DNA of 45,173 bases from Actinomycetota bacterium (lineage in GTDB: Bacteria; Actinomycetota; Acidimicrobiia; Acidimicrobiales; Ilumatobacteraceae). The DNA lies in the NCBI GenBank assembly GCA_041178585.1, contig JBEGVD010000021.1, forward strand, positions 1-45,173, written 5' to 3'. Below, piece by piece: positions 7,304 to 37,135 of the stretch. The translations under genes and the position numbers were made by a program. Numbering within the stretch: the first letter of the stretch is position 1; each line of letters begins with the position of its first letter. The notes beneath the pieces were generated by a model. It saw only the letters and a program-made list of their open reading frames with translations. It did no database searches and was not told where the DNA came from.

Positions 7304-8178
7304 TGTTGAGTAAGCAGCAAATTGAAGCAGCAATTGATCAGTTTCACGATGAGGGTTATGCAATTGTTCGTAACTTCCTTCCTGACGACGAATTGGCAGC
7401 GTTGCAGAAAAAGGCGGCTGAGTTGCGTGAGATTGCACTTGAGCATCCGGTCACGTATCGCCATGGAAACCTGACGTACGAAATCTTGCCTGAGGAGCAC
7501 TTTGGGAAGCGGTATGTCATTCAGGCGTATTGGTTCGCGTGGGCTGATGCATACTTTGACAAGTTCCGTAGCAACCCTCGATACCTGCAGCTGCTTGAGC
7601 CGCTCATCGGCAACAACGTCAAGCAAGTGACGCAGCAGATTCACTGGAAGCCACCAGGAGCTCGTCTAACCGGATACCGATTCCATCAAGACTTACGTTT
7701 CCGAGAAAGCCGCGAGTCATATGAAGATGTCGTTCGCGACACAGTCACCATGGGCTTAGCTATAGACAGAGCAACAACGGAAAACGGTTGCCTCAAGATC
7801 GTTCCTCGCAGCCACACCATGGGCTATCTCGGCCTTTCTGACAATGGCGATGGCCAAATTATGAAGGGTCTCACGCAAGACGATGAATTGGTGCAGGTGG
7901 GCATTGATCCATCACGAGTAATCGATGTAGAACTTGAACCAGGAGACCTCGTTGTATGGGGTCTGATGACCGTGCATGGTTCGTTGCCGAATGAATCGAT
8001 TCATGAGCGTGCATTTGCCATTTCAAGTTATGTACGGGGAGAAACCTCACAACGCGGTGAGTGGACGTTTAAGGACGGAAAGCCACAGATGCTTGGAGAA
8101 ACTCCTCAGTTGTGCAAGAACGAGAAACTGTTCCTTAACCTTGAGCCTCATTACGATGCGACCAAGTGGTTCCTCTGA
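7303..8178 (+). CDS. phytanoyl-CoA dioxygenase (PhyH) family Fe(II)/2-oxoglutarate oxygenase
   Basis: HxD facial-triad element RFHQD plus distal VHGSLPN. The ATG at 7303 overlaps the upstream TGA (TGATG), and the listed 7162 extension overlaps the ligase. Confidence 0.75.
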   Translation: MLSKQQIEAAIDQFHDEGYAIVRNFLPDDELAALQKKAAELREIALEHPVTYRHGNLTYEILPEEHFGKRYVIQAYWFAWADAYFDKFRSNPRYLQLLEPLIGNNVKQVTQQIHWKPPGARLTGYRFHQDLRFRESRESYEDVVRDTVTMGLAIDRATTENGCLKIVPRSHTMGYLGLSDNGDGQIMKGLTQDDELVQVGIDPSRVIDVELEPGDLVVWGLMTVHGSLPNESIHERAFAISSYVRGETSQRGEWTFKDGKPQMLGETPQLCKNEKLFLNLEPHYDATKWFL

Positions 8179-8192
8179 ACTAGCCTGCGCAC

Positions 8193-8969
8193 ATGATTTT
8201 AAATACATTGATTAACTCAGTCATTGTCATTGTTGTCAGCATGTTCCTACTGTGGGTTATCAGCGTGTTGAAAAAGAATGCATCAATAGTTGACATTTTC
8301 TGGGGTTTTGGTTTTGTCATCGTGGCGTGGGCGAGTGCAATCAATGCCGATCAAGTTTCCGTTCTAGGCAAGGTGGTTCTGGCGCTAGTGTCGCTTTGGG
8401 GATTACGACTATCGATCTATTTGGGCATTCGTAACCACGGTAAACCAGAGGATTTTCGCTATGTCGCAATGCGCAAGCACTATGGGCCGAGGTTTCCAAT
8501 AATCAGTTTGTTTACCGTGTTTTTGTTGCAGGGTGCGATCATGATGATTGTCTCGCTACCAGTTCAAATTGCTTTGTCCGATGCAAGTACTTCCTTGTCG
8601 ATTGTCAGTTATATCGGCATTGGTTTATTTGCTCTAGGAATCTTCTTTGAAGCAGTTGGCGACTGGCAGCTTGCTCATTTCAAGCGCAATCCGCAGAACG
8701 CTGGCCTAGTTATGCAAACAGGTTTGTGGAAGTACACACGACACCCGAATTATTTCGGTGATACCTGCGTGTGGTGGGGCATTGGCGTGGTTGCCCTCGG
8801 TGCAAGTTTCGGTTGGATCGGACTCTTTGGAAGTTTGTTAATGAACTTCTTCCTGGTTCGTGTTTCAGGGGTTCCGATGTTGGAGCGTTCAATGTCGAAG
8901 CGTCGCCCTGGTTACGACGAATACAAGCGACGTACCAGCAGTTTTGTGCCGCGTCCGCCGAAAAAGTAA
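8193..8969 (+). CDS. DUF1295 / steroid 5-alpha-reductase-like integral membrane protein
   Basis: Multi-TM protein with the family motif WKYTRHPNYFGD. Confidence 0.7.
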   Translation: MILNTLINSVIVIVVSMFLLWVISVLKKNASIVDIFWGFGFVIVAWASAINADQVSVLGKVVLALVSLWGLRLSIYLGIRNHGKPEDFRYVAMRKHYGPRFPIISLFTVFLLQGAIMMIVSLPVQIALSDASTSLSIVSYIGIGLFALGIFFEAVGDWQLAHFKRNPQNAGLVMQTGLWKYTRHPNYFGDTCVWWGIGVVALGASFGWIGLFGSLLMNFFLVRVSGVPMLERSMSKRRPGYDEYKRRTSSFVPRPPKK

Positions 8970-8972
8970 TGA

Positions 8973-11258
8973 CTAGCGCGGACTGCGGCCGCGAAGCTTT
9001 GCCCACTCGCCAAATTGCGTAAGCGATGCAACGGTCGCACCCATCGACTCCGGCGCAACAGGGTGGCTAATGAGGTAACCCTGTGCTTTTGCACAACGCA
9101 ATTCGGCTAGTGCTTGTAGCTGTCGAACGCTTTCAACGCCTTCTGCAACCATGTCTAAGCCCAGTGAATCGCCCATGGCGATGATGGTGCGCACGAGTGA
9201 TCGTGCACTTAAATCATCTGCAACACCATTCACGAAAGAGCGGTCAATTTTCAAACGCTGAATCGGGAACTTTTGCAATAGCGAAAGCGAAGAGTAACCC
9301 GTACCAAAGTCATCAATAGCTACTCGCACCCCAAGCGCACACAGTTTGGTTAGTGCGTCTAGTGCTTGTTCGGGTTGCGCAATCATCACGCCTTCGGTGA
9401 CCTCGAGCCATAGCTGGTCGGGTGCAATGTGCGAGCGTTGCAATGCCTCATGAACTACTGGGACGAAGTTGGGGTCGTGAAGTTGGCGAGGACTCACGTT
9501 TACCGACATGGTGGCTTCACGACTGCATACGCCTTCGTTTATCCAGCCGCGCAAGTGGGTGAGCGCTTCGAGTAGTGCCCACGCGCCGATTGGAACAATG
9601 GTGCCGGTCTCTTCAGCAATCGGAATGAACTCTGCGGGCGAGATGATGCTGCCATCATCACGCGTCCAACGCATGAGAGCTTCAAAACCAACCACATCAC
9701 CAAGTTCAATATCGACAATAGGTTGATGAACCAAACGCAACTCCCTACGTTCCAGTGCGCGATATAGAGCAGTTTCAACGGCTAGGCGTTGCGTGACACG
9801 TTCAAGCATTGACTCGTCGAAAATTGCTACGCAGTTTCTGCCGGCATCTTTGGCTCGATACATCGCTGTGTCTGCATGTCGCAGAAGGTCGTCGGCATTA
9901 GTTGAAATACGTTTGTGAAAGGTTGCGACGCCAATGCTTGTTGAAACGAATACGTCGCCTTGGCGGAGTGAAAGGGGTTCATTGAAACTCTCAAGAATTT
10001 TGTCGGCAACGATCATGGCATCGCTTGTACCGCGTGTGCCTGGGTCCAGGATGACGAATTCATCTCCCGAAATTCGACCAACAACACAACGCTCGGGCAG
10101 AGCATTTTTCAGCCGCTGTGAAACGGCAATCAGCACATTGTCTCCAGCTTGGTGACCTAGCGAGTCATTGATGTTCTTAAATCGATCAACGTCTATAAAC
10201 AAAACTGATGGGTGTCGCTGGTCTTGTTCTGCAAACTCAAGAGCAGCATTGACATGTGCGAGCATCAGACTGCGATTAGGCAATCCCGTAAGCGCATCGG
10301 TCTGGGCTGAATGAATGAGCGAGCGCTGAGTAGTTGCATTTGTGCGAACGGCGTGGATAACCCGTGCTGTCACCGCAATTGTCAAGACGAAGACAGAAAC
10401 TGCTCGTACTATGCGGTCGGTTTGATCTGCTGCTTCAGTGAGTGCAAGCACAACCACCGGAATGGTGAGTGCTGCTGTAGTTGTGATGAGGCGTCCAAGA
10501 AGCGGTCGCTGAGTGCGTGCTGTACCATGCTCGGTAATTGTTGAAATGCTGTTGTGTACAAAAGCTGCCGAACAGAGAAACAAACAGAACACATATGCAG
10601 CATTGATGTATTGAACATCTATCTGGAATCGACCCGAATCGTTTGCCGCATACAGAAAATCTCCAGCGAGCGTAAATGTTATAGCAAATGCAATGAGCCA
10701 AACAGCTGGTGTACGTGCAGCATCTCCGAATAGCAACGTTGCTAGCGAGAAGAGCACAATCGCACTGATTGCAAGTGTCGCCCCTTGAATGCCGGTAACC
10801 AGAAGAACTGTTGTGTCTTCGTTAAATGTTGGTTGAAGAAAAACCACCCAAATGAGGAACCAGGCGCCGAGCGCAACGATTAGTCCATCACCAAGAACAC
10901 TCAGCGGATCGTTGCCAATTCGGCGCCGAATAATCAGCAGCAGACCGAACGCCAGAGTGGCTTGAACCAATAAGAACAACGATTCAGGAATTGCTTGCAA
11001 GTTCACATTGGTGAATTGCTCATCCAATAACTGTGCTGTTGTCGACGCCACAGCAATGACGAAAAGTGCAGGCCACAACACCTTGTCGGGTTTATTGAAT
11101 TTCGCGGAGATGCCGAGAAACACCATGACCTGAACCGTGGCGATGAGGTAGGCGCTGTCGCTGAAGCTCGGAGAGCCACTTGTCGCAACGGCGACGGACA
11201 GGACGAGACCAACGCCAGTTAAGCCCCAAGAAAGGCGTGAAATAGGCGCAGAATTCAC
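8973..11258 (-). CDS. membrane-anchored GGDEF-EAL protein (diguanylate cyclase/phosphodiesterase)
   Basis: A polytopic N-terminal region of about 300 aa. GGDEF domain with the variant SGDEF. EAL domain with EALMRW, DDFGTGYSS, KIDRSF, EGVE and QGY. GTG start. Confidence 0.9.
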   Translation of the reverse strand: MNSAPISRLSWGLTGVGLVLSVAVATSGSPSFSDSAYLIATVQVMVFLGISAKFNKPDKVLWPALFVIAVASTTAQLLDEQFTNVNLQAIPESLFLLVQATLAFGLLLIIRRRIGNDPLSVLGDGLIVALGAWFLIWVVFLQPTFNEDTTVLLVTGIQGATLAISAIVLFSLATLLFGDAARTPAVWLIAFAITFTLAGDFLYAANDSGRFQIDVQYINAAYVFCLFLCSAAFVHNSISTITEHGTARTQRPLLGRLITTTAALTIPVVVLALTEAADQTDRIVRAVSVFVLTIAVTARVIHAVRTNATTQRSLIHSAQTDALTGLPNRSLMLAHVNAALEFAEQDQRHPSVLFIDVDRFKNINDSLGHQAGDNVLIAVSQRLKNALPERCVVGRISGDEFVILDPGTRGTSDAMIVADKILESFNEPLSLRQGDVFVSTSIGVATFHKRISTNADDLLRHADTAMYRAKDAGRNCVAIFDESMLERVTQRLAVETALYRALERRELRLVHQPIVDIELGDVVGFEALMRWTRDDGSIISPAEFIPIAEETGTIVPIGAWALLEALTHLRGWINEGVCSREATMSVNVSPRQLHDPNFVPVVHEALQRSHIAPDQLWLEVTEGVMIAQPEQALDALTKLCALGVRVAIDDFGTGYSSLSLLQKFPIQRLKIDRSFVNGVADDLSARSLVRTIIAMGDSLGLDMVAEGVESVRQLQALAELRCAKAQGYLISHPVAPESMGATVASLTQFGEWAKLRGRSPR

Positions 11259-27904: not shown

Positions 27905-28513
27905 TTATTTTGCAATCAGCATTTTGTAGTCGTCAAAGGTCACAGGTGTTCCTGCTCCAGCTATGTCTCCGCGACCGCGCGGTACGCCAATTGCGTTACC
28001 TCCCACGCTGAAGGTAACTTGCCCAATACCGGGCTGGCTAGTCAGCGTGAGCACAATTTGGGCAATCGCTAATCGTTGCTCGTTGGGTTTAATCGAATCT
28101 AGGTAAACGCGTTTTGCATTCACGTTCGCTACTCCGCCTTCAACTTCGACAACCGCAACAAAGTCGACCGGCAGAAGAGTTTTCACGTTGGTGTGGGCAG
28201 GATCGGGCAATCCTGCAACAAGCGCCACGAAAACGCCTTGCAAGTCTGTTGGGGAAGGAATTTCAAGTCGTACTCGCTCTAGCGAAGATCCATCAACAAA
28301 ATACAAATCAGCTTGTTCGAAAGTAGTTCCAGTCAATGGGGAAGTCAGAACCACTGACGTTGTTGTGGCAGGAGCTGATGTCTCTGGGGAATCGAGTTCA
28401 AAGGGAATGTCGTTCGAGTTGATCTCATCGACTTCTCCCGATTTTGGAACAGCGCACGAGGCAAGCACTATGCACAGCGCGGCAAATCGGTATGGAGTAG
28501 CACGGTTGATCAT
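27905..28513 (-). CDS. GerMN-domain lipoprotein (miniature LpqB-like)
   Basis: Lipobox LASC after a signal peptide and a GerMN-like core (DLYFVDGSSLERV). ATGA-coupled downstream of the histidine kinase. Confidence 0.65.
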   Translation of the reverse strand: MINRATPYRFAALCIVLASCAVPKSGEVDEINSNDIPFELDSPETSAPATTTSVVLTSPLTGTTFEQADLYFVDGSSLERVRLEIPSPTDLQGVFVALVAGLPDPAHTNVKTLLPVDFVAVVEVEGGVANVNAKRVYLDSIKPNEQRLAIAQIVLTLTSQPGIGQVTFSVGGNAIGVPRGRGDIAGAGTPVTFDDYKMLIAK

Positions 28514-29931
28514 GATCGGGACTCGGTCCTAGCAAAGGTGATGACGAACCGTGAACCACCTTCACTTGATTCCTCCACGTGAGCACTTCCGTGAAGGGCA
28601 CGAGCGTGTTCCCTAACTATTGCCAATCCGAGCCCACTGCCTTTGCTGTTGCGAGATGCGGTTCCGCGTGCAAAGCGATCAAATACTTGATTGCGTTCGG
28701 TCACTAATACTCCAGGTCCGGCGTCGTGTACTGCGAGTGTAAACGTGTTTCCATCGCTGCTCAGTGTCACCCTTGTTGCTCCGTTGGCATGATCTCGGGC
28801 GTTCTCTAGAAGGTTGACCAAGATGCGCTCAATGCGCCGCCTATCGAGCCGTGTTTCGTCATCGGCTCGAGTTTCTCCGTCCGAGGCTTGCACCGAACTG
28901 ACAAATGGAATCTCACCAAAACCATACCGATGCATAATGCGACTGATGAGGTCGTTGAGTTGAACCTCTTCGGCCTCATGTTCCGCAACTTGGGCGTCAA
29001 GGCGCGAAAGTTCCAAGAGATCAAGAACGGTTCTGTCGAAGCGTTCGATCTGTTTCTGCATGATGTCAATTGCCTGCTGATTTCGCTCAGAGAATTCGGA
29101 CCTTCGCGAAACCAGGACATCCGCTGCTGCTGACAAAGCGGTTACGGGTGATCGCAATTCATGACTGACATCACTTGCAAAACGCTGTTCGCGTTCAATT
29201 CGTTGTTGTACGGCATCTGCCATCTCGTTAAATGAAACAACAAGTCGGTCAAGGTCGGAGTCATCTTCCTGAACCAACCGAGTATCAAGACCACCTGTTG
29301 CAATTTGGTTAGCCGCAAACGCAACTCGTGTGAGGGGCTGAAGCACCGTCCTGCTCATGGTTAACCCAAGAACACCAGCCGCGAGGGTAATGAGCACAAC
29401 TCCGATGAGCAGTGTGATTTGGATGGTGCGAAGCGTGTTTTCGACGTCGGTTACCGGAAAGGCTTCAAAGTAATGAAGTCCAATAGAGGGAACGGCAACC
29501 CCAACTGCTTCGTACGGTTTACTCTCAAATTGAAAACGTTGTCTGCTCGTCTTGTCGTTGAGTGTTCGTTCAACCAATTCTGGAGGCAAGTTCGATTGAG
29601 TGAATCGAAGTGGTTCCTGCGCATAGAACAGCGATGCTCGGCCTGGGCGTTCATCGAGCTGTACCACCGCATATCCGCCCTGTTCTGTTCGGATTTGTGT
29701 TACTAGGTCGGCGATATTCGCACTGTCTGTTTCGACGATGTTGCGCATTAGCTGCGCATTATTAAAGGCCTGTCGTTGAGCAACTTCTGATCGCTGACCA
29801 AGCAGATATGAGCGGGTGCTGGCATAGGTCACCACGCTGAGCGCTATTGCTGCTGTCATTGCAGCAAGACCGAAGAACAACACCATTCTGTGCTTCAGCC
29901 CAAGTTTTCGGGGGAAGCGCAACTGACTCAT
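28510..29931 (-). CDS. sensor histidine kinase, MtrB-like (TM-sensor-TM-HAMP-HisKA-HATPase)
   Basis: H-box FASDVSHELRSP, N-box LLENARDHA, G-boxes DAGPGV and GSGLGLAIV. Start is ATG 29931 or TTG 29958. Confidence 0.85.
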   Translation of the reverse strand: MSQLRFPRKLGLKHRMVLFFGLAAMTAAIALSVVTYASTRSYLLGQRSEVAQRQAFNNAQLMRNIVETDSANIADLVTQIRTEQGGYAVVQLDERPGRASLFYAQEPLRFTQSNLPPELVERTLNDKTSRQRFQFESKPYEAVGVAVPSIGLHYFEAFPVTDVENTLRTIQITLLIGVVLITLAAGVLGLTMSRTVLQPLTRVAFAANQIATGGLDTRLVQEDDSDLDRLVVSFNEMADAVQQRIEREQRFASDVSHELRSPVTALSAAADVLVSRRSEFSERNQQAIDIMQKQIERFDRTVLDLLELSRLDAQVAEHEAEEVQLNDLISRIMHRYGFGEIPFVSSVQASDGETRADDETRLDRRRIERILVNLLENARDHANGATRVTLSSDGNTFTLAVHDAGPGVLVTERNQVFDRFARGTASRNSKGSGLGLAIVREHARALHGSAHVEESSEGGSRFVITFARTESRS

Positions 29932-29963
29932 GGATACAGCATGGCAGTAAAAAGGCAAGACCG

Positions 29964-30006: not shown

Positions 30007-30100
30007 GATAGGGAAATTCTGCTACCGCTACATGACAATTGCTGATGATTTGTGTGCGTTTTCTGTAACAATTTGCGCATTTCGGGCAGACTGCATAGCG

Positions 30101-30790
30101 ATGTTTACGCTGCTTTTCATTGAAGACGACGAAGCCATTCGTACCGCACTCAGGCTTGTGCTTGAGGACGAAGGCTATGAAGTTGCAGAAGCAGGCGATG
30201 GAGAGACTGGCATCAAAATGTTTGGGCAAATGGATCCTGATTTGGTTTTGCTCGATCTTCGATTACCCGATATTTCTGGTTTTGAAGTGTGCAGGGCGAT
30301 ACGGCGAACAAGTATCACTCCAGTCATCATGGTGACGGCCCAAACCGATACGTCTGATTTAGTTAACGGATTCGATGCGGGCGCTGATGACTACGTGACA
30401 AAGCCTGTAGTTCCAAAAGAACTCGCAGCACGCATACGCGCAGCGCTTCGCAGAACGCAAACAGTGGAGTCTTCTCCGTCAGGTCCAAAATCGTTGAACA
30501 AAATCGGCGATGTTGAAATAGATCGCAACCTGAGCATTGTGAAGAAGGCAGGAGTCGAGATTGCGCTTACGAAAACTGAATATCGATTGCTGGTTGAATT
30601 TGCGGATCATCCTGGAATGGTGATGTCACGAGATCAACTGCTCGAGCGAGTGTGGGGATATGAGTATCTAGGTGATTCACGTCTGGTGGATGCGCACGTG
30701 CGGCGCTTGCGAGTGAAGGTTGAGACCCAACCAGAAGAGCCGACCATGATCGTCACCGTTCGTGGAATGGGCTATCGACTACTGAACTAA
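30101..30790 (+). CDS. OmpR/PhoB-family response regulator, MtrA-like
   Basis: Receiver domain with LLDLRLPD and KP. Winged helix with VWGYEY...RRLRVKVE...VRGMGYRL, very close to mycobacterial MtrA. ATG at 30101. Confidence 0.9.
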   Translation: MFTLLFIEDDEAIRTALRLVLEDEGYEVAEAGDGETGIKMFGQMDPDLVLLDLRLPDISGFEVCRAIRRTSITPVIMVTAQTDTSDLVNGFDAGADDYVTKPVVPKELAARIRAALRRTQTVESSPSGPKSLNKIGDVEIDRNLSIVKKAGVEIALTKTEYRLLVEFADHPGMVMSRDQLLERVWGYEYLGDSRLVDAHVRRLRVKVETQPEEPTMIVTVRGMGYRLLN

Positions 30791-30794
30791 TTCG

Positions 30795-32693
30795 CTAGAA
30801 GGACTTAAGGAACTGAACGACATCGGAAAATTCAATAGTGCGTTTCATCGGCGGCAGAGTTGAAACAATTTTCTTGCCATAACCCTTAGTGGCGAGTCGC
30901 GGATCAAGAATGGCAACGACACCAGAGTCTTTACGTGAACGAATCAATCGACCTGCTGCTTGGGCGAGTTGTGTTGCAGCAAGTGGAATATCGATCTCGC
31001 TGAATGACGTTTTTCCAATCTCGTCTCGTCTGGCGCTGAGCAGAGGATCGTCGGGACGAGGAAACGGGATCTTGTCAATCACTACAAGACTGAGAGTTTG
31101 GCCGGGAACGTCTACTCCTTGAAAGAATCCGGCTGTTGCGAACAGGCACGCTGATTCCTCTGATGCAAACGCATCGACCAAAGCCATCTTTGGAAGATCA
31201 TCTTGGCGCCAAATTTTATACTCGAGACGACGCATCATTTCATCGGCGGCAGCATGCATTGCTCGATATGTGGTGAACAATGCCAATGTGCGACCTTGAG
31301 CGGCGTTGATCAATTTCTCTAACTCGTCATGAACAGCGTCATCTCTGCGAGAGTCGTTAGGCAATGGCAGGTGCTTTGCGCAGTACAACAGTGCGGAATT
31401 CTCGTAATCAAACGGGCTGCCTACGTCGATCGCGTCAACCTCGTCTTCATTCAGGCCAACACGAGTAGGCATTGCTAGCGGGATGGTTGCACTGGTGAGA
31501 ATTGCCGTTCGCTTCGACCAGACACCGTTGTTTAGTGAAGGCCCAACATGGAGAGGTGCGAGTTCAAGAATTGGTCGATCTTTACTGCCACTTACGAAAG
31601 CCACGGTTCGCGACCCGGCTGTAAGGGACCCATCGATAACTTCGATCAATCGAGTGCTCAGCGTCTGTCCTCTTAGTATCCGCTGCTTTGCCGATTCGTC
31701 GTTGCTGGAGATCGCCTTTAGTCCTGCCACCGCTTCATCAATCTTCAGTCGTAATCGGGCAAGTACATCTTGTATGTCATCGGGGAGCGGAAGCGGAACT
31801 CGTTTATCAACCTCGCCCGCGATGTAACCACCAAATTCGGATGCAAGTTGCTGAAGAGATCCGGTTAATGCATCATCTCTCACGATTGAGCGCAGTGCGC
31901 CTATTACATGCTGAATGCTTCCAGGACTAATCGCCATGCTGACTGATGCACTCATGACGTCTTCGAGTTGGTGTGCCTCGTCAAATATCACCACGTCATG
32001 TTCTGGGAGCAACGCGCCATCTGTTGCGACGTCAAGGCCGTAGATGTGTGTGTTGACAACAATGACATCCGCAATAGACGCAAAATCACGCGCGCGCTCG
32101 GTAAAGCACGTGTCACCTGATGGGCACCGACTTGCACCTGGGCACTCATCGCTACCGATGCTCACATGGCGCCAAGCGGCATCGCGAGGAGTCCATGACA
32201 AATCGCCCGAATCTCCAGTGGTCGTCGTTTCAGACCAGGCAACAAGTTTGTCAATATCAGATTTCACTTGTGCGCTGAAATCCTGAAGATCGAGCTTGTG
32301 TTGTTTTGGCTCGCGGATCTCGGCAATACGTTGTGCACACAGATAGTTATTGCGACCCTTCAGCACAGCCCATGAGATCTCGCGTCCGAGAATTGGTGTG
32401 AGCGCCGAGGACAGAATCGGTAAATCGTGTTTTGCAAGTTGATCTTGCAATGCTTTCGTGTATGTGGAAACAACAACGCGTTGCCCTGATGCAATTGCTG
32501 GTACGAGATACCCCAAAGTCTTCCCAGTACCCGTTCCAGCCTGGACGATTAAATGACGCTTATTTGCGATTGCATCCGCAATGGCATTTGCCATGGTTAC
32601 TTGGCCGGAACGTGCTTCAACATTTGGCAGAGTGTCTACAACTGCCTGAAGAAGATCTGCAACGCCAAGTTCGTGGTTTTGTTTAGCGGGCAT
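30795..32693 (-). CDS. dinG: DinG/XPD-family Fe-S ATP-dependent DNA helicase
   Basis: Walker A AGTGTGKT, DEAH box FDEAHQLED, and four Cys in the insert (NNYLC, ECPG, RCPS, DTCF). Confidence 0.85.
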   Translation of the reverse strand: MPAKQNHELGVADLLQAVVDTLPNVEARSGQVTMANAIADAIANKRHLIVQAGTGTGKTLGYLVPAIASGQRVVVSTYTKALQDQLAKHDLPILSSALTPILGREISWAVLKGRNNYLCAQRIAEIREPKQHKLDLQDFSAQVKSDIDKLVAWSETTTTGDSGDLSWTPRDAAWRHVSIGSDECPGASRCPSGDTCFTERARDFASIADVIVVNTHIYGLDVATDGALLPEHDVVIFDEAHQLEDVMSASVSMAISPGSIQHVIGALRSIVRDDALTGSLQQLASEFGGYIAGEVDKRVPLPLPDDIQDVLARLRLKIDEAVAGLKAISSNDESAKQRILRGQTLSTRLIEVIDGSLTAGSRTVAFVSGSKDRPILELAPLHVGPSLNNGVWSKRTAILTSATIPLAMPTRVGLNEDEVDAIDVGSPFDYENSALLYCAKHLPLPNDSRRDDAVHDELEKLINAAQGRTLALFTTYRAMHAAADEMMRRLEYKIWRQDDLPKMALVDAFASEESACLFATAGFFQGVDVPGQTLSLVVIDKIPFPRPDDPLLSARRDEIGKTSFSEIDIPLAATQLAQAAGRLIRSRKDSGVVAILDPRLATKGYGKKIVSTLPPMKRTIEFSDVVQFLKSF

Positions 32694-33375
32694 GAATCAA
32701 CTTGAGTGCATTATCTATTTCGTGAGAATCAAAATCGGGCCATGTTCGCTCGGTGAAGTACACCTTGGCTCCTTTGATTTGCCACAGCATGAAATTTGAA
32801 ATTCGAGATTCACCAGATGTTCGCACTACAACGTCGACAGGCGGAAGAATTGGCGCATACAAATGGTTTGAGATCTCTAGTGACGAAACATCATGCGGGG
32901 TGTGGTGACTTGCTCGAGAAAGTTGAGCGGCGCGAAGCAGCTCTGCACGACTTCCGTAGTCAAAGGCAACAGTTAGCACCATGCCAGTGTTGTGTGCAGT
33001 GTCTTCGATTGCCTGCAAAATTGCCTTCTGAATAAATCCTGGAGTCTTTGAACCTGGCTCATCGAATGGTCTGCCAATCCATTGGATTCGAACGTTGTTG
33101 GCGTTGAGCTCCTCGATACGTCCGAACAGCCGTTTATGTAAAGAGAGAATGTGTTTCACCTCAGCAGGTGGACGAACCCAGTTCTCTGTTGAAAATCCAA
33201 AAACTGTGAGCCAGCCAACATTTCGTGACGCACAGACACGCACCACTTCTGCAAGGTTTTCCTCACCGGCTGTATGGCCTTCAGTACGGGGAAGTCCTCG
33301 TCGTTTAGCCCAGCGACCATTGCCATCCATGATGCAGGCAATATGGATGGGAGATTGTTGATTCGCCGTATCCAT
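32683..33375 (-). CDS. uppS: cis-prenyltransferase (UppS family) with all catalytic motifs but lacking the C-terminal RXG motif
   Basis: IMDGNGRWAK, FSTENWVRP and RTSGESRISNFMLWQ are present. The protein ends ...WPDFDSHEIDNALKLIHAR*. Start is ATG 33375 (TTG 33417 is possible). The 3' end overlaps the dinG start by 11 nt. Confidence 0.85.
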   Translation of the reverse strand: MDTANQQSPIHIACIMDGNGRWAKRRGLPRTEGHTAGEENLAEVVRVCASRNVGWLTVFGFSTENWVRPPAEVKHILSLHKRLFGRIEELNANNVRIQWIGRPFDEPGSKTPGFIQKAILQAIEDTAHNTGMVLTVAFDYGSRAELLRAAQLSRASHHTPHDVSSLEISNHLYAPILPPVDVVVRTSGESRISNFMLWQIKGAKVYFTERTWPDFDSHEIDNALKLIHAR

Positions 33376-33994
33376 GCCGAACACCTTACTGATGTGGACA
33401 GTGATGGCGTGCGACAATAGTGATGTGGCTGACAGTTCATCATTACAACACGTTCTTGTTGTCGGGGGATCGCTCGATCAGTGGAACGAAATGTCGTCGT
33501 CGGATTGGTCGCAGTACATCGCAACATTGCGGGCATCGGTTGAGCAGATTGGAGCCGATTGGCTCACGGTGTATCCATATTCTGGTATTGCAGACTCGCA
33601 GATGGACAGTGCACTCTCTGAGAAGATCGCACAAGCATGTGGAGCTCAACTTGTGGATGGGAAGTTATTGCTTAGTGGTACAACCTCGGTAGTGATCGAT
33701 ACTTGCGCAGACGGTCAGCAAAGGTTTGTGCGAGCAGTCAACGGTTTATCTGAAGAGAAAATTACCGAAAAGAGTTTGGCGAACGCCATATTGCATCCTG
33801 CATCGTGCGAGCCAGATCTCGTGGTGATTTTTGGAGACCCCACGCAGTTGCCACCATCACTCGTGTGGGAACTTGCTTACAGCGAACTTGTGTACCTGAA
33901 CACTCATTGGCCGTACTGCAATATCGAAGATATTGAACTAGCAATAAATGACTTCCAACGCAGAGATCGTCGTTTCGGTGGGGTGGACTCATGA
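33374..33994 (+). CDS. degenerate UppS-fold paralog that retains the C-terminal RRFGG (NgBR/Nus1-like candidate non-catalytic subunit)
   Basis: HVLVVGGSLDQWNE replaces HxAxIMDGNxRWA. LTVYPYSG resembles LTLYAFS. DLVVIFGDPTQLPPSLVWELAYSELVYLNTHWPYCNIEDIELAINDFQRRDRRFGG aligns to the UPPS C-terminal half. ATGA-coupled to recO. Alternative starts at 33392 and 33404. Confidence 0.6.
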   Translation: MPNTLLMWTVMACDNSDVADSSSLQHVLVVGGSLDQWNEMSSSDWSQYIATLRASVEQIGADWLTVYPYSGIADSQMDSALSEKIAQACGAQLVDGKLLLSGTTSVVIDTCADGQQRFVRAVNGLSEEKITEKSLANAILHPASCEPDLVVIFGDPTQLPPSLVWELAYSELVYLNTHWPYCNIEDIELAINDFQRRDRRFGGVDS

Positions 33995-34710
33995 CGCTGT
34001 ATCGCGATAAAGGCGTGGTATTGAGAAGCTACAAACTCGGGGAGTCAGACCGCATTGTCGTGCTGATGACTGAGCAGCACGGAAAAGTCCGTGCGGTGGC
34101 TAAGGGTATTCGCAAGACCAAGTCGAAGATAGGCGCACGACTAGAACCGATGAGCCATGTTGAGGTTCAGCTGTACAAAGGCAGGGAACTAGACACCGTT
34201 TCCCAGGTTGAACTCATCGATTCGTCGGCGCGCTTACACAACAATCTCGACAAGCTGACCCAAGGCATGTCAATGCTTGAAGCAGTAGATCAAATTGCCG
34301 AAGACAGAGAGCCTTCGCCACACCTGTACCGCATGTTGCACGGAGCACTGAATGCCTTGATGGAGCAAGAGTCGCCAGTGATGCTCGCAGCCTTTTATTG
34401 GAAGTTACTCGCTGCAGAGGGAGTCAGCCCACAGGTTCAGGCATGCGTGGGGTGTGCTTCCAAGGACGGTTTGGTTGCCTTTGACATTTTCCATGGTGGA
34501 GTGCAGTGTCGTATGTGTCGAACAGGTATCACCATTTCACAATCAGCCATTGACCTGTTGCAGCAAGTTCTGGGAGGGCAACTAAACGTTGCGCTTGCAC
34601 AGCCAGAATCACCTGCAAGTTTTGAAGTTTCTCAACTAGCGACTCAGGCAATGGAGCATCACATTGAACGGCGACTGAGGTCAGTTGCAATGTTCAGTCC
34701 GCGTCACTAG
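33991..34710 (+). CDS. recO: DNA repair protein RecO
   Basis: N-terminal OB region YRDKGVVLRSYKLGESDRIV and the zinc motif CVGC...CRMC. Confidence 0.9.
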   Translation: MTLYRDKGVVLRSYKLGESDRIVVLMTEQHGKVRAVAKGIRKTKSKIGARLEPMSHVEVQLYKGRELDTVSQVELIDSSARLHNNLDKLTQGMSMLEAVDQIAEDREPSPHLYRMLHGALNALMEQESPVMLAAFYWKLLAAEGVSPQVQACVGCASKDGLVAFDIFHGGVQCRMCRTGITISQSAIDLLQQVLGGQLNVALAQPESPASFEVSQLATQAMEHHIERRLRSVAMFSPRH

Positions 34711-34730
34711 TCGGGTTGTAGTCTGTAGCC

Positions 34731-36038
34731 ATGCCCGCAAGCGATTTAGAGCAAGTTGTCAACCTTTGCAAACGCCGCGGCTTCGTTTTTCCAAGCGCCG
34801 AGATCTACGGAGGGTTCCGATCCTCGTATGATTACGGCCCGCTTGGGTCGCTCATGTTGCGCAATGTGAAGGATGCGTGGGTGCGCAGCATGGTGCAACA
34901 GCGTGACGATGTTGTTTTGATTGACGCCGCCATTCTTGGTCCACCTCAAGTGTTTGAAGCAAGTGGTCACTTGTCTAATTTCAGTGATCCACTGGTTGAC
35001 TGCACAGTCTGTAATCGCCGTTTCCGTGAAGACCAATTAGAAGTACGCGATTGCCCTCAGAAAATGAAGGGTTGTACCTTTACTGAAGCTCGTGCGTTCA
35101 ACCTCATGTTCCAAACTCATGCTGGTCCCGTGGAAGGTGAAGGCGCAACGGTATACATGCGCCCAGAAACTGCTCAAGGCATGTTTGTCAACTTCACGAA
35201 TGTTTTGCAAACCTCACGCAAGAAGCCGCCATTTGGAATCGCTCAGGTTGGAAAATCATTTCGCAATGAAATTACGCCTGGTAACTTCATCTTCCGTACT
35301 CGCGAGTTTGAGCAGATGGAGATGGAATTTTTTGTTCCACCTGCGGAAAGCGCAAAGTGGTACGACTACTGGTGCGAAACGCGCATGCAGTGGTATATCG
35401 ACTTGGGTATTCCGGCAGACATGCTGCGCCTGCGCGCGCATGAAGCAGACGAACTGTCGCATTACTCAAGCGGAACAAGTGATATTGAATTCAAGTTTCC
35501 TTGGGGTTGGGGAGAACTAGAAGGAATTGCGCAGCGCACAGATTTCGATCTCAATCGTCACGCTGAGTTCTCAAAACAGAAACTTGATTACTTTGATCAA
35601 GCGACAAATGAGCGTTATGTTCCATACGTAGTGGAACCTGCCGCTGGTGCTAACCGCACAATGGCAGCGTTCTTGCTTGCCGCATACGACGAAGACGTAA
35701 TCAACGACGAGCCGCGCACAGTGCTGCGTTTGCACCCTCGCTTGGCTCCGTATCAAGTTGCCATCTTGCCGTTGTCAAAGAAGGATTCACTCACGCCTCT
35801 TGCGGATCAGATTTTTTCGACACTCAGCAAGCGGTATTACTGCGATTACGACGAAACCCAAGCGATCGGCCGTCGCTATCGACGCCAGGACGAGATTGGA
35901 ACGCCGTACTGCATCACGGTTGACTTCGATTCACTTGAAGATGGTCAGGTAACTATTCGCGAACGCGACACCACTCAGCAAGAGCGAGTGTCAATCGATC
36001 GTCTTGAGCAAGTTCTTAGTGAAAAATTAGGGTTCTAA
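34731..36038 (+). CDS. glyQS: glycine-tRNA ligase (dimeric class II type)
   Basis: KRRGFVFPSAEIYGG N-terminus, class II motif 2 FRNEITPGNFIFRTREFEQME, and an anticodon-binding C-terminus. Confidence 0.9.
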   Translation: MPASDLEQVVNLCKRRGFVFPSAEIYGGFRSSYDYGPLGSLMLRNVKDAWVRSMVQQRDDVVLIDAAILGPPQVFEASGHLSNFSDPLVDCTVCNRRFREDQLEVRDCPQKMKGCTFTEARAFNLMFQTHAGPVEGEGATVYMRPETAQGMFVNFTNVLQTSRKKPPFGIAQVGKSFRNEITPGNFIFRTREFEQMEMEFFVPPAESAKWYDYWCETRMQWYIDLGIPADMLRLRAHEADELSHYSSGTSDIEFKFPWGWGELEGIAQRTDFDLNRHAEFSKQKLDYFDQATNERYVPYVVEPAAGANRTMAAFLLAAYDEDVINDEPRTVLRLHPRLAPYQVAILPLSKKDSLTPLADQIFSTLSKRYYCDYDETQAIGRRYRRQDEIGTPYCITVDFDSLEDGQVTIRERDTTQQERVSIDRLEQVLSEKLGF

Positions 36039-36049
36039 CAGGAGGAATC

Positions 36050-36355
36050 ATGAGCAAAGTAGCAGTGGCAGTCAAACTACGAATCAAAGCTGGTCAGCGT
36101 GATGCATTCACGGAAGCAGTTAAGCCAGGTCTGGCTACGGCGCAGAGTGAGTCTGGAACTCAGACGTACATTTTCCATCACGACGCTTTAGACGCCGATG
36201 TCGTGTGGTTCTACGAGTTGTACGCGAATCAAGATGCGATGAATGCGCATATGGGTAGTGATGCTTTCAAAGCATTCTCAAAATCACTTGCTGAATTCGT
36301 CGATGGAGCTCCTGAATTCAACTTGCTTACGCCGATTGGTGGCAAGGGTCTTTAA
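36050..36355 (+). CDS. antibiotic-biosynthesis-monooxygenase (ABM) domain protein
   Basis: About 100-aa ferredoxin-like ABM pattern (FYELYANQDAMNAHMGSDAFKAF). Confidence 0.7.
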   Translation: MSKVAVAVKLRIKAGQRDAFTEAVKPGLATAQSESGTQTYIFHHDALDADVVWFYELYANQDAMNAHMGSDAFKAFSKSLAEFVDGAPEFNLLTPIGGKGL

Positions 36356-36358
36356 GCC

Positions 36359-37135
36359 TTGTATCTAGACAAAATCGTTCAAAGCCACCGCGAAGTTGCT
36401 TCGCGTGACCAGCGGAATTTGGATGATCTTGTTGGCCAGGCCCGTGCACTTTCCTCGACCAGAGGTTTCGGTGAGCAACTTGTTCAAGGTTCTCGTGAGA
36501 ATCTGTGTGTCATTGCAGAGATCAAGCGAAAGTCACCGTCCAAGGGTGTGCTTCACGCAAATCTGGACGCTGCGCGTATCGCATCGTTATACGAACAAGG
36601 TGGAGCATCGTGTTTGTCGGTGTTAACCGATGAGCATTTCTTTGGTGGTTCGGTAGAAGATCTTCAAATTGCTCGTGCAAGTACGTCGCTTCCAGTTATT
36701 CGTAAAGACTTCACAGTTTCAGAATTTGATGTGGTTGATGCCCGTCTTATGGGTGCCGATTGTGTTTTGCTGATTGCTGCAGCGCTAACTGATGACGAGT
36801 TTTCACGCTTTCATAATCTTGCGGTTCATATTGGCTTGGAAGTGCTCGTAGAAACACACGATGAACACGAGCTTGAACGTGCTTTAAACATTGGCGCAAC
36901 CATCGTGGGAGTAAATCAACGCGATCTCATCACATTTGAAGTCGACCACGCACGCGCAGAACGAATGGCGTCGCTTATTCCTCCAACAGTGGTTCGAGTC
37001 GCAGAATCTGGTGTGAGGAACGCAGACGATGCTCGTCGATTACGTGATGTTGGATACGACGCGGTGTTGGTGGGTGAGTCAATTGTTACCTCGAGTGATC
37101 CAGTTGCAGCAGTTCGTGATTTGATGGTGGCATAA
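36359..37135 (+). CDS. trpC: indole-3-glycerol phosphate synthase
   Basis: IAEIKRKSPSKG, LSVLTDEHFFGG and VGVNQRDL. TTG start 3 nt after the upstream stop. Confidence 0.9.
   Translation: MYLDKIVQSHREVASRDQRNLDDLVGQARALSSTRGFGEQLVQGSRENLCVIAEIKRKSPSKGVLHANLDAARIASLYEQGGASCLSVLTDEHFFGGSVEDLQIARASTSLPVIRKDFTVSEFDVVDARLMGADCVLLIAAALTDDEFSRFHNLAVHIGLEVLVETHDEHELERALNIGATIVGVNQRDLITFEVDHARAERMASLIPPTVVRVAESGVRNADDARRLRDVGYDAVLVGESIVTSSDPVAAVRDLMVA

Follow-up and report, generated by a model that had tools for sequence, protein, structure and literature searches.

Two divergently transcribed cis-prenyltransferase genes on a 45,173-nt stretch of actinobacterial DNA (contig JBEGVD010000021.1, G+C 50.8%; the whole stretch is called the window below) are likely, judging from their sequences, to encode the two subunits of a heteromeric enzyme. 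One gene encodes a protein with a complete set of catalytic residues, here termed the catalytic subunit, and the other encodes a catalytically dead paralogue, here termed the partner. The closest relatives of the window genes are found in freshwater acIV metagenome-assembled genomes (MAGs) labelled Ilumatobacteraceae, Acidimicrobiia or Actinomycetota; Ilumatobacteraceae belongs to the order Acidimicrobiales of the class Acidimicrobiia. In canonical undecaprenyl diphosphate synthase (UPPS), the catalytic residues, Glu213 (Escherichia coli numbering) and the C-terminal RXG motif are all present in one chain, whereas here they are divided over two chains, and neither window chain carries both the catalytic residues and a C-terminal RXG. 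The losses are complementary: the catalytic subunit lacks Glu213 and R242-G244, while the partner lacks all 11 catalytic residues and keeps both Glu213 and the RRFGG tail.

The RXG tail is of particular importance in this enzyme family, as in both homodimers and heterodimers the tail of one subunit completes the active site of the other (PMC7573591; 10.1101/2020.06.03.132209). The Arg of the motif contacts Mg2+ and the diphosphates, and the beta-phosphate of isopentenyl diphosphate (IPP) is bound by backbone amides of the two residues that follow; the last helices form the dimer interface together with the linker that precedes the last strand (PMC7573591; 10.1101/2020.06.03.132209). By analogy with the known heteromers, we infer that the two proteins of the window heterodimerise, that the tail of the partner is inserted in trans, and that activity depends on the partner. 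The product would probably be a polyprenyl diphosphate lipid carrier of C50-C55. Under current annotation, both proteins are named either "undecaprenyl diphosphate synthase" or "hypothetical protein".

The catalytic subunit

An earlier, sequence-only reading of the window had proposed that the minus-strand uppS gene carries every catalytic motif, that it stops just before the RXG tail, that KGAKV replaces the canonical AYAEL segment with loss of the conserved Glu, and that no RFG is encoded downstream of the stop. Each of these statements agrees with our analysis. The translation reads MDTANQQSPIHIACIMDGNGRWAK...FSTENWVRP...RTSGESRISNFMLWQIKGAKVYF...KLIHAR*. Both proteins were aligned with E. 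coli UPPS, human DHDDS and human NgBR (reference sequences 100% identical to the chains in the PDB) to give a residue map in E. coli numbering. In this map, the catalytic protein retains 11 of 11 catalytic or substrate-binding residues (D26, N28, R30, R39, H43, S71, N74, R77, R194, R200 and S202), and its P-loop, which includes the catalytic Asp, is invariant in 32 homologues. It has Lys204 at the position of E. coli Glu213 and ends before R241, so that the positions of R242-G244 are empty.

The absence of the tail can also be seen from the profile and structural comparisons. The match to PF01255 (E 3e-64) covers profile positions 1-209 of 219, which means that the last ten positions, holding the RXG tail, are missing from the protein. 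In an AlphaFold2 model (predicted local distance difference test, pLDDT, 84.2), the final helix spans residues 217-228 of 230; with only two residues beyond that helix, the modelled catalytic protein has no tail at all. No R[FYL]G motif could be found in any of the three frames 3' of the stop codon, one of which is already the start of dinG.

By sequence, the catalytic subunit is typical of homodimeric bacterial UPPS and actinobacterial cis-prenyltransferases such as those of E. coli (1jp3), Thermobifida fusca (7cpn) and Mycobacterium tuberculosis (Rv2361c, 2vg2). The nearest solved structure is the T. fusca enzyme (E 1e-52), with that of E. coli at 6e-44. The protein scores 203 bits with TIGR00055, above the cut-off of 109.55, but reaches the threshold of none of the 15 PRK-type models (14 of them equivalogs). 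The ratio of nonsynonymous to synonymous substitution rates (dN/dS) of catalytic genes against the window sequence is 0.03-0.08.

The degenerate partner

For the divergent neighbour, the same reading had claimed a shared fold despite the loss of the catalytic Asp loop, the ENW segment and the RTSGE arginines, with AYSEL and RRFGG retained, and had suggested a PF01255 profile search with both proteins. Both do match PF01255, the partner at 46 bits (cut-off 27; E 6e-12) and over profile positions 136-219 only; it scores under every NCBIfam cut-off. The fold assignment was borne out by three further comparisons. An AlphaFold2 model of the partner, built from a 36-sequence family alignment, has a pLDDT of 89.8 and a predicted template modelling (TM) score of 0.83; a Foldseek search of the PDB with this model returned UPPS-type cis-prenyltransferases for all of the top 50 hits (probability 1.0, TM 0.54-0.61); and hhalign aligned the partner family with E. 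coli UPPS over 189 columns (probability 99, E 9e-18). The C-terminal 85 residues align to homodimeric bacterial UPPS at E ~1e-10. The low-confidence parts of the model are the first 25 residues and the last five, and the tail has a pLDDT of 52, as expected for a segment that would become ordered only on a partner. Residues 1-25 are polar and poorly conserved, with no hydrophobic segment seen in the sequence.

The residue map agrees with the claimed losses. At the 11 E. coli catalytic positions, taken in order, the partner has G/L/Q/gap/S/S/A/Q/I/Q/P, so that none is retained, and the P-loop, the ENW segment and the RTSGE arginines are all absent. What it does retain is D190, W207, E213 (E171 in its own numbering), W221 and R241-G245 (R199-G203), and its C-terminus reads RRDRRFGGVDS. 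In an alignment of 36 diverse members, the invariant residues are G32, W37, D148 and L149, the five residues of the WELAYSELV segment listed in Table 1, and, in the tail, R197, R199, R200, F201, G202 and G203. They thus cluster in the PDL, WELAYSELV and R-RRFGG segments. In the human complex, the linker equivalent to the WELAYSELV beta-strand linker forms the dimer interface (PMC7573591).

The partner is under strong purifying selection, which is concentrated on the half of the protein that holds the interface and the tail. Its dN/dS against the window sequence is 0.08-0.17 overall, with 0.02-0.06 for the C-terminal half and 0.15-0.53 for the N-terminal half.

Co-occurrence and conservation of the pair

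When GTDB species were scanned with one genome each, 394 species genomes were seen to encode a relative of the partner, and the loci of the best 80 of these 394 were examined. All 80 are from Acidimicrobiia MAGs, some with plainly wrong species labels. For example, the records of freshwater Acidimicrobiia MAGs L022, L026, L027, L048-L050, L054 and L060 have implausible organism names, among them Bifidobacterium breve, Ferrithrix thermotolerans DSM 19514 and Acidimicrobium ferrooxidans DSM 10331, so that the record titles are unreliable as taxonomy.

The sequence-only reading had suggested looking for co-occurrence of the two genes in relatives, and this was found in both directions. Starting from the partner, the pair was present in 74 of 74 complete loci; starting from two divergent catalytic homologues, the partner was adjacent in both (2/2). 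The RRFG motif is present in 80/80 partner ORFs (open reading frames), all of them intact and from independent assemblies. Of the 75 catalytic ORFs in related loci, 73 have no terminal R.G of any kind, one is cut by a contig end and one has a coincidental RRGT directly after the helix; thus, 74 of 74 complete catalytic ORFs are without a real RXG tail. At the position equivalent to Glu213, most of these 75 loci encode K or R and three encode Glu. Protein-level searches gave the same picture: R.G is absent from the last 15 residues of all of the best 120 catalytic homologues (69-93% identity, 215-245 aa), with the truncation point identical throughout, and the best 120 partner homologues all end in RRFGG (120/120). 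Among 1.84 billion cluster representatives, 106 are related to the partner at E <= 1e-10; some 60 of them stand for full-length clusters (50% identity), all without DGNxR, RTSGE and ENW, and nearly all ending in RRFGG.

A full-length, RXG-containing uppS at this locus in close relatives would have pointed to an artefact, as the earlier reading had recognised; no catalytic gene with RXG was found at the locus among relatives with 39-93% partner identity. The same divergent pair with a tail-less catalytic gene is found even in three distant lineages with a GC content of 63-70%, in which the partner is ~40% identical. Judging from these alignments, the catalytic gene was already truncated in the ancestor of a large clade.

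The gene order dinG(-) catalytic(-) <> partner(+) recO(+) glyS(+) was found in every sufficiently long locus, and the adjacency of partner and recO is kept in every locus that reaches past the partner gene. For 70 of the 75 related loci, the extrapolated start-to-start distance of the pair lies between -24 and +115 nt. In L043, L048 and L050, the two cis-prenyltransferase genes are further apart, with a 2.2-kb insertion between them. The L043 insertion (7827-9911) encodes, on the partner's strand, a 694-aa polytopic membrane protein with no Pfam match; from its position in the locus of a lipid-carrier synthase, a polyprenyl-phosphate-dependent transferase is one candidate idea. One MAG (JBDSBE01, cluster1_bin.126) contributed two loci, L069 and L070, each with the whole dinG-catalytic<>partner-recO arrangement and near-identical scores, which is probably a matter of strain heterogeneity or a duplicated bin and not a real second copy.

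Comparison with known cis-prenyltransferases

The division of residues over two chains is that of the eukaryotic enzyme. Like the catalytic subunit, human DHDDS (Rer2 in yeast) keeps the catalytic residues and has lost RXG and Glu213 (Cys224 in DHDDS, Lys204 here). Like the partner, NgBR (Nus1 in yeast) keeps the fold, has lost the P-loop and retains both the Glu and the C-terminal RXG; NgBR and the partner also share an internal deletion after the third strand and the replacement of RTSGE by (V/I)(F/L)GP. The sequence-only reading had drawn attention to this complementary split, and the likeness proved closer than it stated, since the loss of Glu213 and the change of RTSGE to FGP are common to both systems as well. 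In the solved structure of DHDDS/NgBR, the tail of the accessory subunit completes the catalytic site in trans (PMC7573591).

There are also differences. The partner lacks the N-terminal membrane anchor of NgBR and the catalytic subunit does not have the C-terminal helix-turn-helix of DHDDS, so that no heterotetramer is expected. The tail of the partner is the bacterial RRFGG, unlike the RLGK of NgBR. In hhalign, the partner aligns with NgBR at E 7e-7 over 149 columns, against the far stronger match to E. coli UPPS given above, and in phmmer NUS1 is matched at E 0.02 against 7e-11 for canonical cis-prenyltransferases. By these scores, the partner is nearer in sequence to single-subunit bacterial UPPS than to NgBR/Nus1. 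Because its profile is nearer to bacterial UPPS and its tail is of the bacterial type, the likeness to NgBR is most simply explained as convergent.

Two-subunit enzymes have also been described from archaea, namely MM_1083/MM_0618 of Methanosarcina mazei and Af1219/Af0707 of Archaeoglobus fulgidus, which make C45-C60 glycosyl-carrier lipids (PMC13586052, PMC12998183, PMC8131916). These are prokaryotic, cytosolic two-subunit enzymes with RXG split as it is here, a likeness that we draw from the literature descriptions and not from sequence. They belong to Euryarchaeota, have been proposed in the literature as the source from which the eukaryotic system came and, unlike the pair described here, have genes that are not reported to lie side by side in divergent orientation. 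A 2026 review states that all characterised bacterial cis-prenyltransferases are homomeric, and the only heteromers it names are those of eukaryotes, Methanosarcina and Archaeoglobus (PMC13586052), and a 2025 paper on Paramecium places the origin of the heteromer in Euryarchaeota, on the line to eukaryotes (PMC12998183). No bacterial heteromer was found in our literature search, which did not cover subscription-only papers, so an earlier report is possible.

Proposed assembly of the enzyme

In the proposed heteromer, the 230-aa protein would hold the sole working active site, made up of the allylic (S1) and IPP (S2) sites and the hydrophobic tunnel. As it has no tail, the catalytic chain should be able to close neither its own S2 site nor that of a sister subunit. 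The 206-aa paralogue would dimerise with the catalytic chain through the usual interface, i.e., the last helices and the WELAYSELV linker, and its RRFGG tail would cross this interface into the site of the catalytic subunit. There, the Arg would make contact with the Mg2+/diphosphate cluster, and the backbone amides of Phe-Gly would bind the beta-phosphate of IPP, as NgBR does for DHDDS. Since the catalytic chain could not donate a tail and the partner could not use one, the only productive assembly would be the heterodimer, with one active site. The back-to-back starts, together with the operon links of the catalytic gene to dinG and of the partner gene to recO, would see to it that both genes are inherited and expressed together.

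Alternative explanations

Several observations weigh against this heteromeric reading and have to be set beside it. The absence of RXG is by itself no proof of dependence on a partner, since M. mazei MM_0014, which lacks RXG, is active as a homodimer (PMC8131916). The Lys or Arg found at the Glu213 position of the catalytic protein might partly stand in for the missing Arg in cis. No third cis-prenyltransferase homologue was found in the span checked, which was the 45-kb window and, for the 80 genome loci, 10 kb to either side; a canonical uppS could be present elsewhere in these genomes. On the supporting side, the pairwise distances of the catalytic and partner proteins over 61 loci are correlated at r = 0.87, a value in which the non-independence of distances is uncorrected. 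The partial r is 0.60 when recO, glyS and dinG are controlled for, the second highest of ten gene pairs; such correlated evolutionary rates are weak evidence for coupling and are suggestive only.

One alternative is that the heteromer is real and serves as an accessory enzyme for a specialised polyprenyl, with a canonical homodimeric uppS elsewhere in the genome making the cell-wall carrier. This concerns the role of the enzyme and is compatible with, and was judged separately from, the heteromeric reading itself; we consider it unlikely, though worth keeping in mind. Two cis-prenyltransferases are frequent in actinobacteria, as in M. tuberculosis with Rv1086 and Rv2361c (PMC7839719). However, in the higher-GC Acidimicrobiales loci L081, L092 and L093 a single canonical uppS, linked to recO, lies exactly where the partner lies here, which suggests that the pair has replaced the housekeeping gene instead of being added to it, and the lack of a third homologue within the span searched points the same way.

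It is somewhat less probable still that the catalytic protein is a self-sufficient homodimeric undecaprenyl diphosphate synthase without RXG, and that the paralogue has an unrelated, non-enzymatic role as a regulator, lipid-binding protein or scaffold. MM_0014 is the precedent, and the K or R found at the Glu213 site in most lineages could add positive charge near the IPP site. MM_0014, however, has a Gly-containing C-terminal TLGG tail that closes its site, no dedicated degenerate partner and an unusual O-prenylation activity, whereas the catalytic protein here ends two residues after its last helix, with no tail at all and a partner that is always adjacent. An unrelated function is also hard to square with a partner that is most constrained at the RXG tail and the interface linker, and with the strict co-occurrence of the pair in complete loci that include the ~40%-identity lineages.

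The remaining possibility, that the partner is a decaying duplication pseudogene and the missing catalytic tail a frameshift or assembly artefact, can be regarded as already refuted by the sequence comparisons: frameshifted uppS genes do exist in the noisy long-read contigs L081, L092 and L093, but the partner ORF is intact in 80 loci with a dN/dS of ~0.1, and the catalytic gene is truncated at the same position in 120 homologues, with no RFG in any downstream frame, where the DNA is the start of dinG.

Origin of the pair

The linkage of the partner to recO is common to the canonical uppS genes of other Acidimicrobiales. In three higher-GC Acidimicrobiales loci, L081 (5598-7062), L092 (5795-6375) and L093 (5573-6330), a single canonical uppS is found at the position of the partner, divergent from dinG and directly upstream of recO, with the motifs DGNGRW, STENW, RTSGE, WELAYSELVF and RRDRRFGGVD. 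These are noisy long-read contigs in which several genes are frameshifted, and gene callers split the uppS into pieces of 68-143 aa and 109-124 aa or fuse it to RecO (P0344, P0493). This arrangement is likely to be the ancestral state.

The strings WELAYSELV and RRDRRFGGVD are common to the partner and the canonical Acidimicrobiales uppS, and the C-terminal part of the partner is 39-42% identical to the local canonical uppS and 28% to that of E. coli. From this we infer that the partner is a degenerated descendant of the ancestral recO-linked uppS and that it came to resemble NgBR convergently. An independent bacterial origin is suggested, because the partner is both nearer to bacterial UPPS and situated where the canonical uppS lies. 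On this sequence evidence we lean, if only slightly, towards a fuller account in which an ordinary bacterial uppS gave rise independently, in Acidimicrobiia, to an obligate two-subunit cis-prenyltransferase that serves as their only polyprenyl-diphosphate synthase. In this account, the recO-linked gene would have become an RXG-donating pseudoenzyme, and a second copy would have kept catalysis and lost RXG and Glu213.

That second copy may go back to an old paralogue, a transfer or fast divergence. A recent tandem duplication was considered and dropped, as the catalytic protein is hardly nearer to the canonical Acidimicrobiales UppS fragments (36-49% identical) than to E. coli UPPS (38%). Also dropped was the idea of a charge swap favouring the heterodimer, with Q208->E in the partner and E213->K in the catalytic chain, because the canonical Acidimicrobiales uppS already reads WELAYSEL and the Glu is not specific to the partner. 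Short "UppS" proteins of 108-184 aa from high-GC Acidimicrobiales were examined as a third, C-terminal-only form and rejected, since they are fragments from contig ends and long-read frameshifts, with dinG and glyS split as well.

A second and less degenerate family of recO-linked cis-prenyltransferase paralogues was seen on contigs of ~73% GC (L082:359-1042, L084:1914-2576 and L085:160-822; proteins P0303, P0309, P0329, P0335, P0359 and P0371). These have the motifs VPxHVAWVAG..., QTGGDRRVP, WEVAYSELVF and RRDRRYGGL, and the gene is followed by an ORF of 110-120 aa, recO and a radical-SAM gene. The L084 paralogue has no catalytic uppS beside it. This family may represent an intermediate stage, or a partner with its catalytic subunit encoded elsewhere.

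Organization of the locus

The features of the locus are given in Table 1. The sequence-only reading had placed the start codons of the two genes on a shared CATG and coupled the partner to recO through an ATGA; both are present, with the overlap of start codons being possible and not certain, because many partner homologues are of 200 aa and begin at the second Met, equivalent to the alternative start in the window. At its longest, the catalytic ORF extends to a TTG at 33417; the ATG listed in the table is backed by 230-aa homologues that are 93% identical. Since the stop of the catalytic gene and the start of dinG overlap by 11 nt (32683-32693), the two probably belong to a single operon. 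A scan of 32400-34900 gave no sigma-70 consensus promoter, a result that is uninformative for Actinobacteria.

Table 1 Features of the cis-prenyltransferase locus (window coordinates)
Feature	Position	Strand	Remarks
HAMP/HisKA histidine kinase gene	28510..29958	-	close to dinG
OmpR-type response regulator ORF	30032..30790	+	near dinG; identified by reading the translation
DinG-like helicase gene	30795..32693	-	PF13307, PF00270, PF06733
Catalytic cis-prenyltransferase subunit gene	32683..33375	-	230 aa from ATG at 33375
WQIKGAKVYF codons	32755..32784	-	K204 at E. coli Glu213 site (canonical AYAEL)
P-loop codons DGNGRW (D17-W22)	33310..33327	-	equivalent to E. coli D26-W31
CATG, divergent start codons overlapping by 2 nt	33373..33376		intergenic region essentially nil
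Partner gene (catalytically dead cis-prenyltransferase paralogue)	33374..33994	+	206 aa; alternative start 33392
WELAYSELV codons (W165-V173)	33866..33892	+	W165, E166, Y169, E171, V173 invariant in 36 diverse members
RDRRFGGVDS tail codons	33962..33991	+	RXG motif is R200-F201-G202
recO	33991..34710	+	PF11967, PF02565; start ATGA-coupled to partner stop (33991-33994)
ABM-family protein gene	36050..36355		PF03992; between glyS and trpC
trpC	36359..37135		indole-3-glycerol phosphate synthase (IGPS)

Beyond the pair itself, the response regulator and kinase genes also adjoin dinG in the distant loci L087, L089, L094 and L095, which indicates that dinG-catalytic<>partner-recO-glyS-trpC is a stable arrangement throughout the class. 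The ABM (antibiotic biosynthesis monooxygenase) protein encoded ahead of trpC is small.

Significance

If the proposed assembly is correct, this would be the first bacterial heteromeric cis-prenyltransferase, and it would overturn the view that all bacterial enzymes of this type are homodimers. The heteromer would be clade-wide and independently derived, making it a natural replicate of the DHDDS/NgBR split, and the change from homodimer to heterodimer would be recurrent and not a single invention of archaea and eukaryotes. It would also offer a second, simpler system in which to study the splitting of a homodimer, being soluble, with no membrane anchor and no tetramer. Glu213 and RXG have been lost together from the catalytic chain and kept together in the accessory chain, a hint that Glu213 acts in concert with the tail of its own chain; a literature search on the role of E. 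coli Glu213 gave nothing usable. For the abundant freshwater acIV Actinobacteria, the present annotation of both proteins would miscount their enzymes. As UPPS is an antibiotic target, the interface of the heteromer would be a lineage-specific feature of that target in these bacteria.

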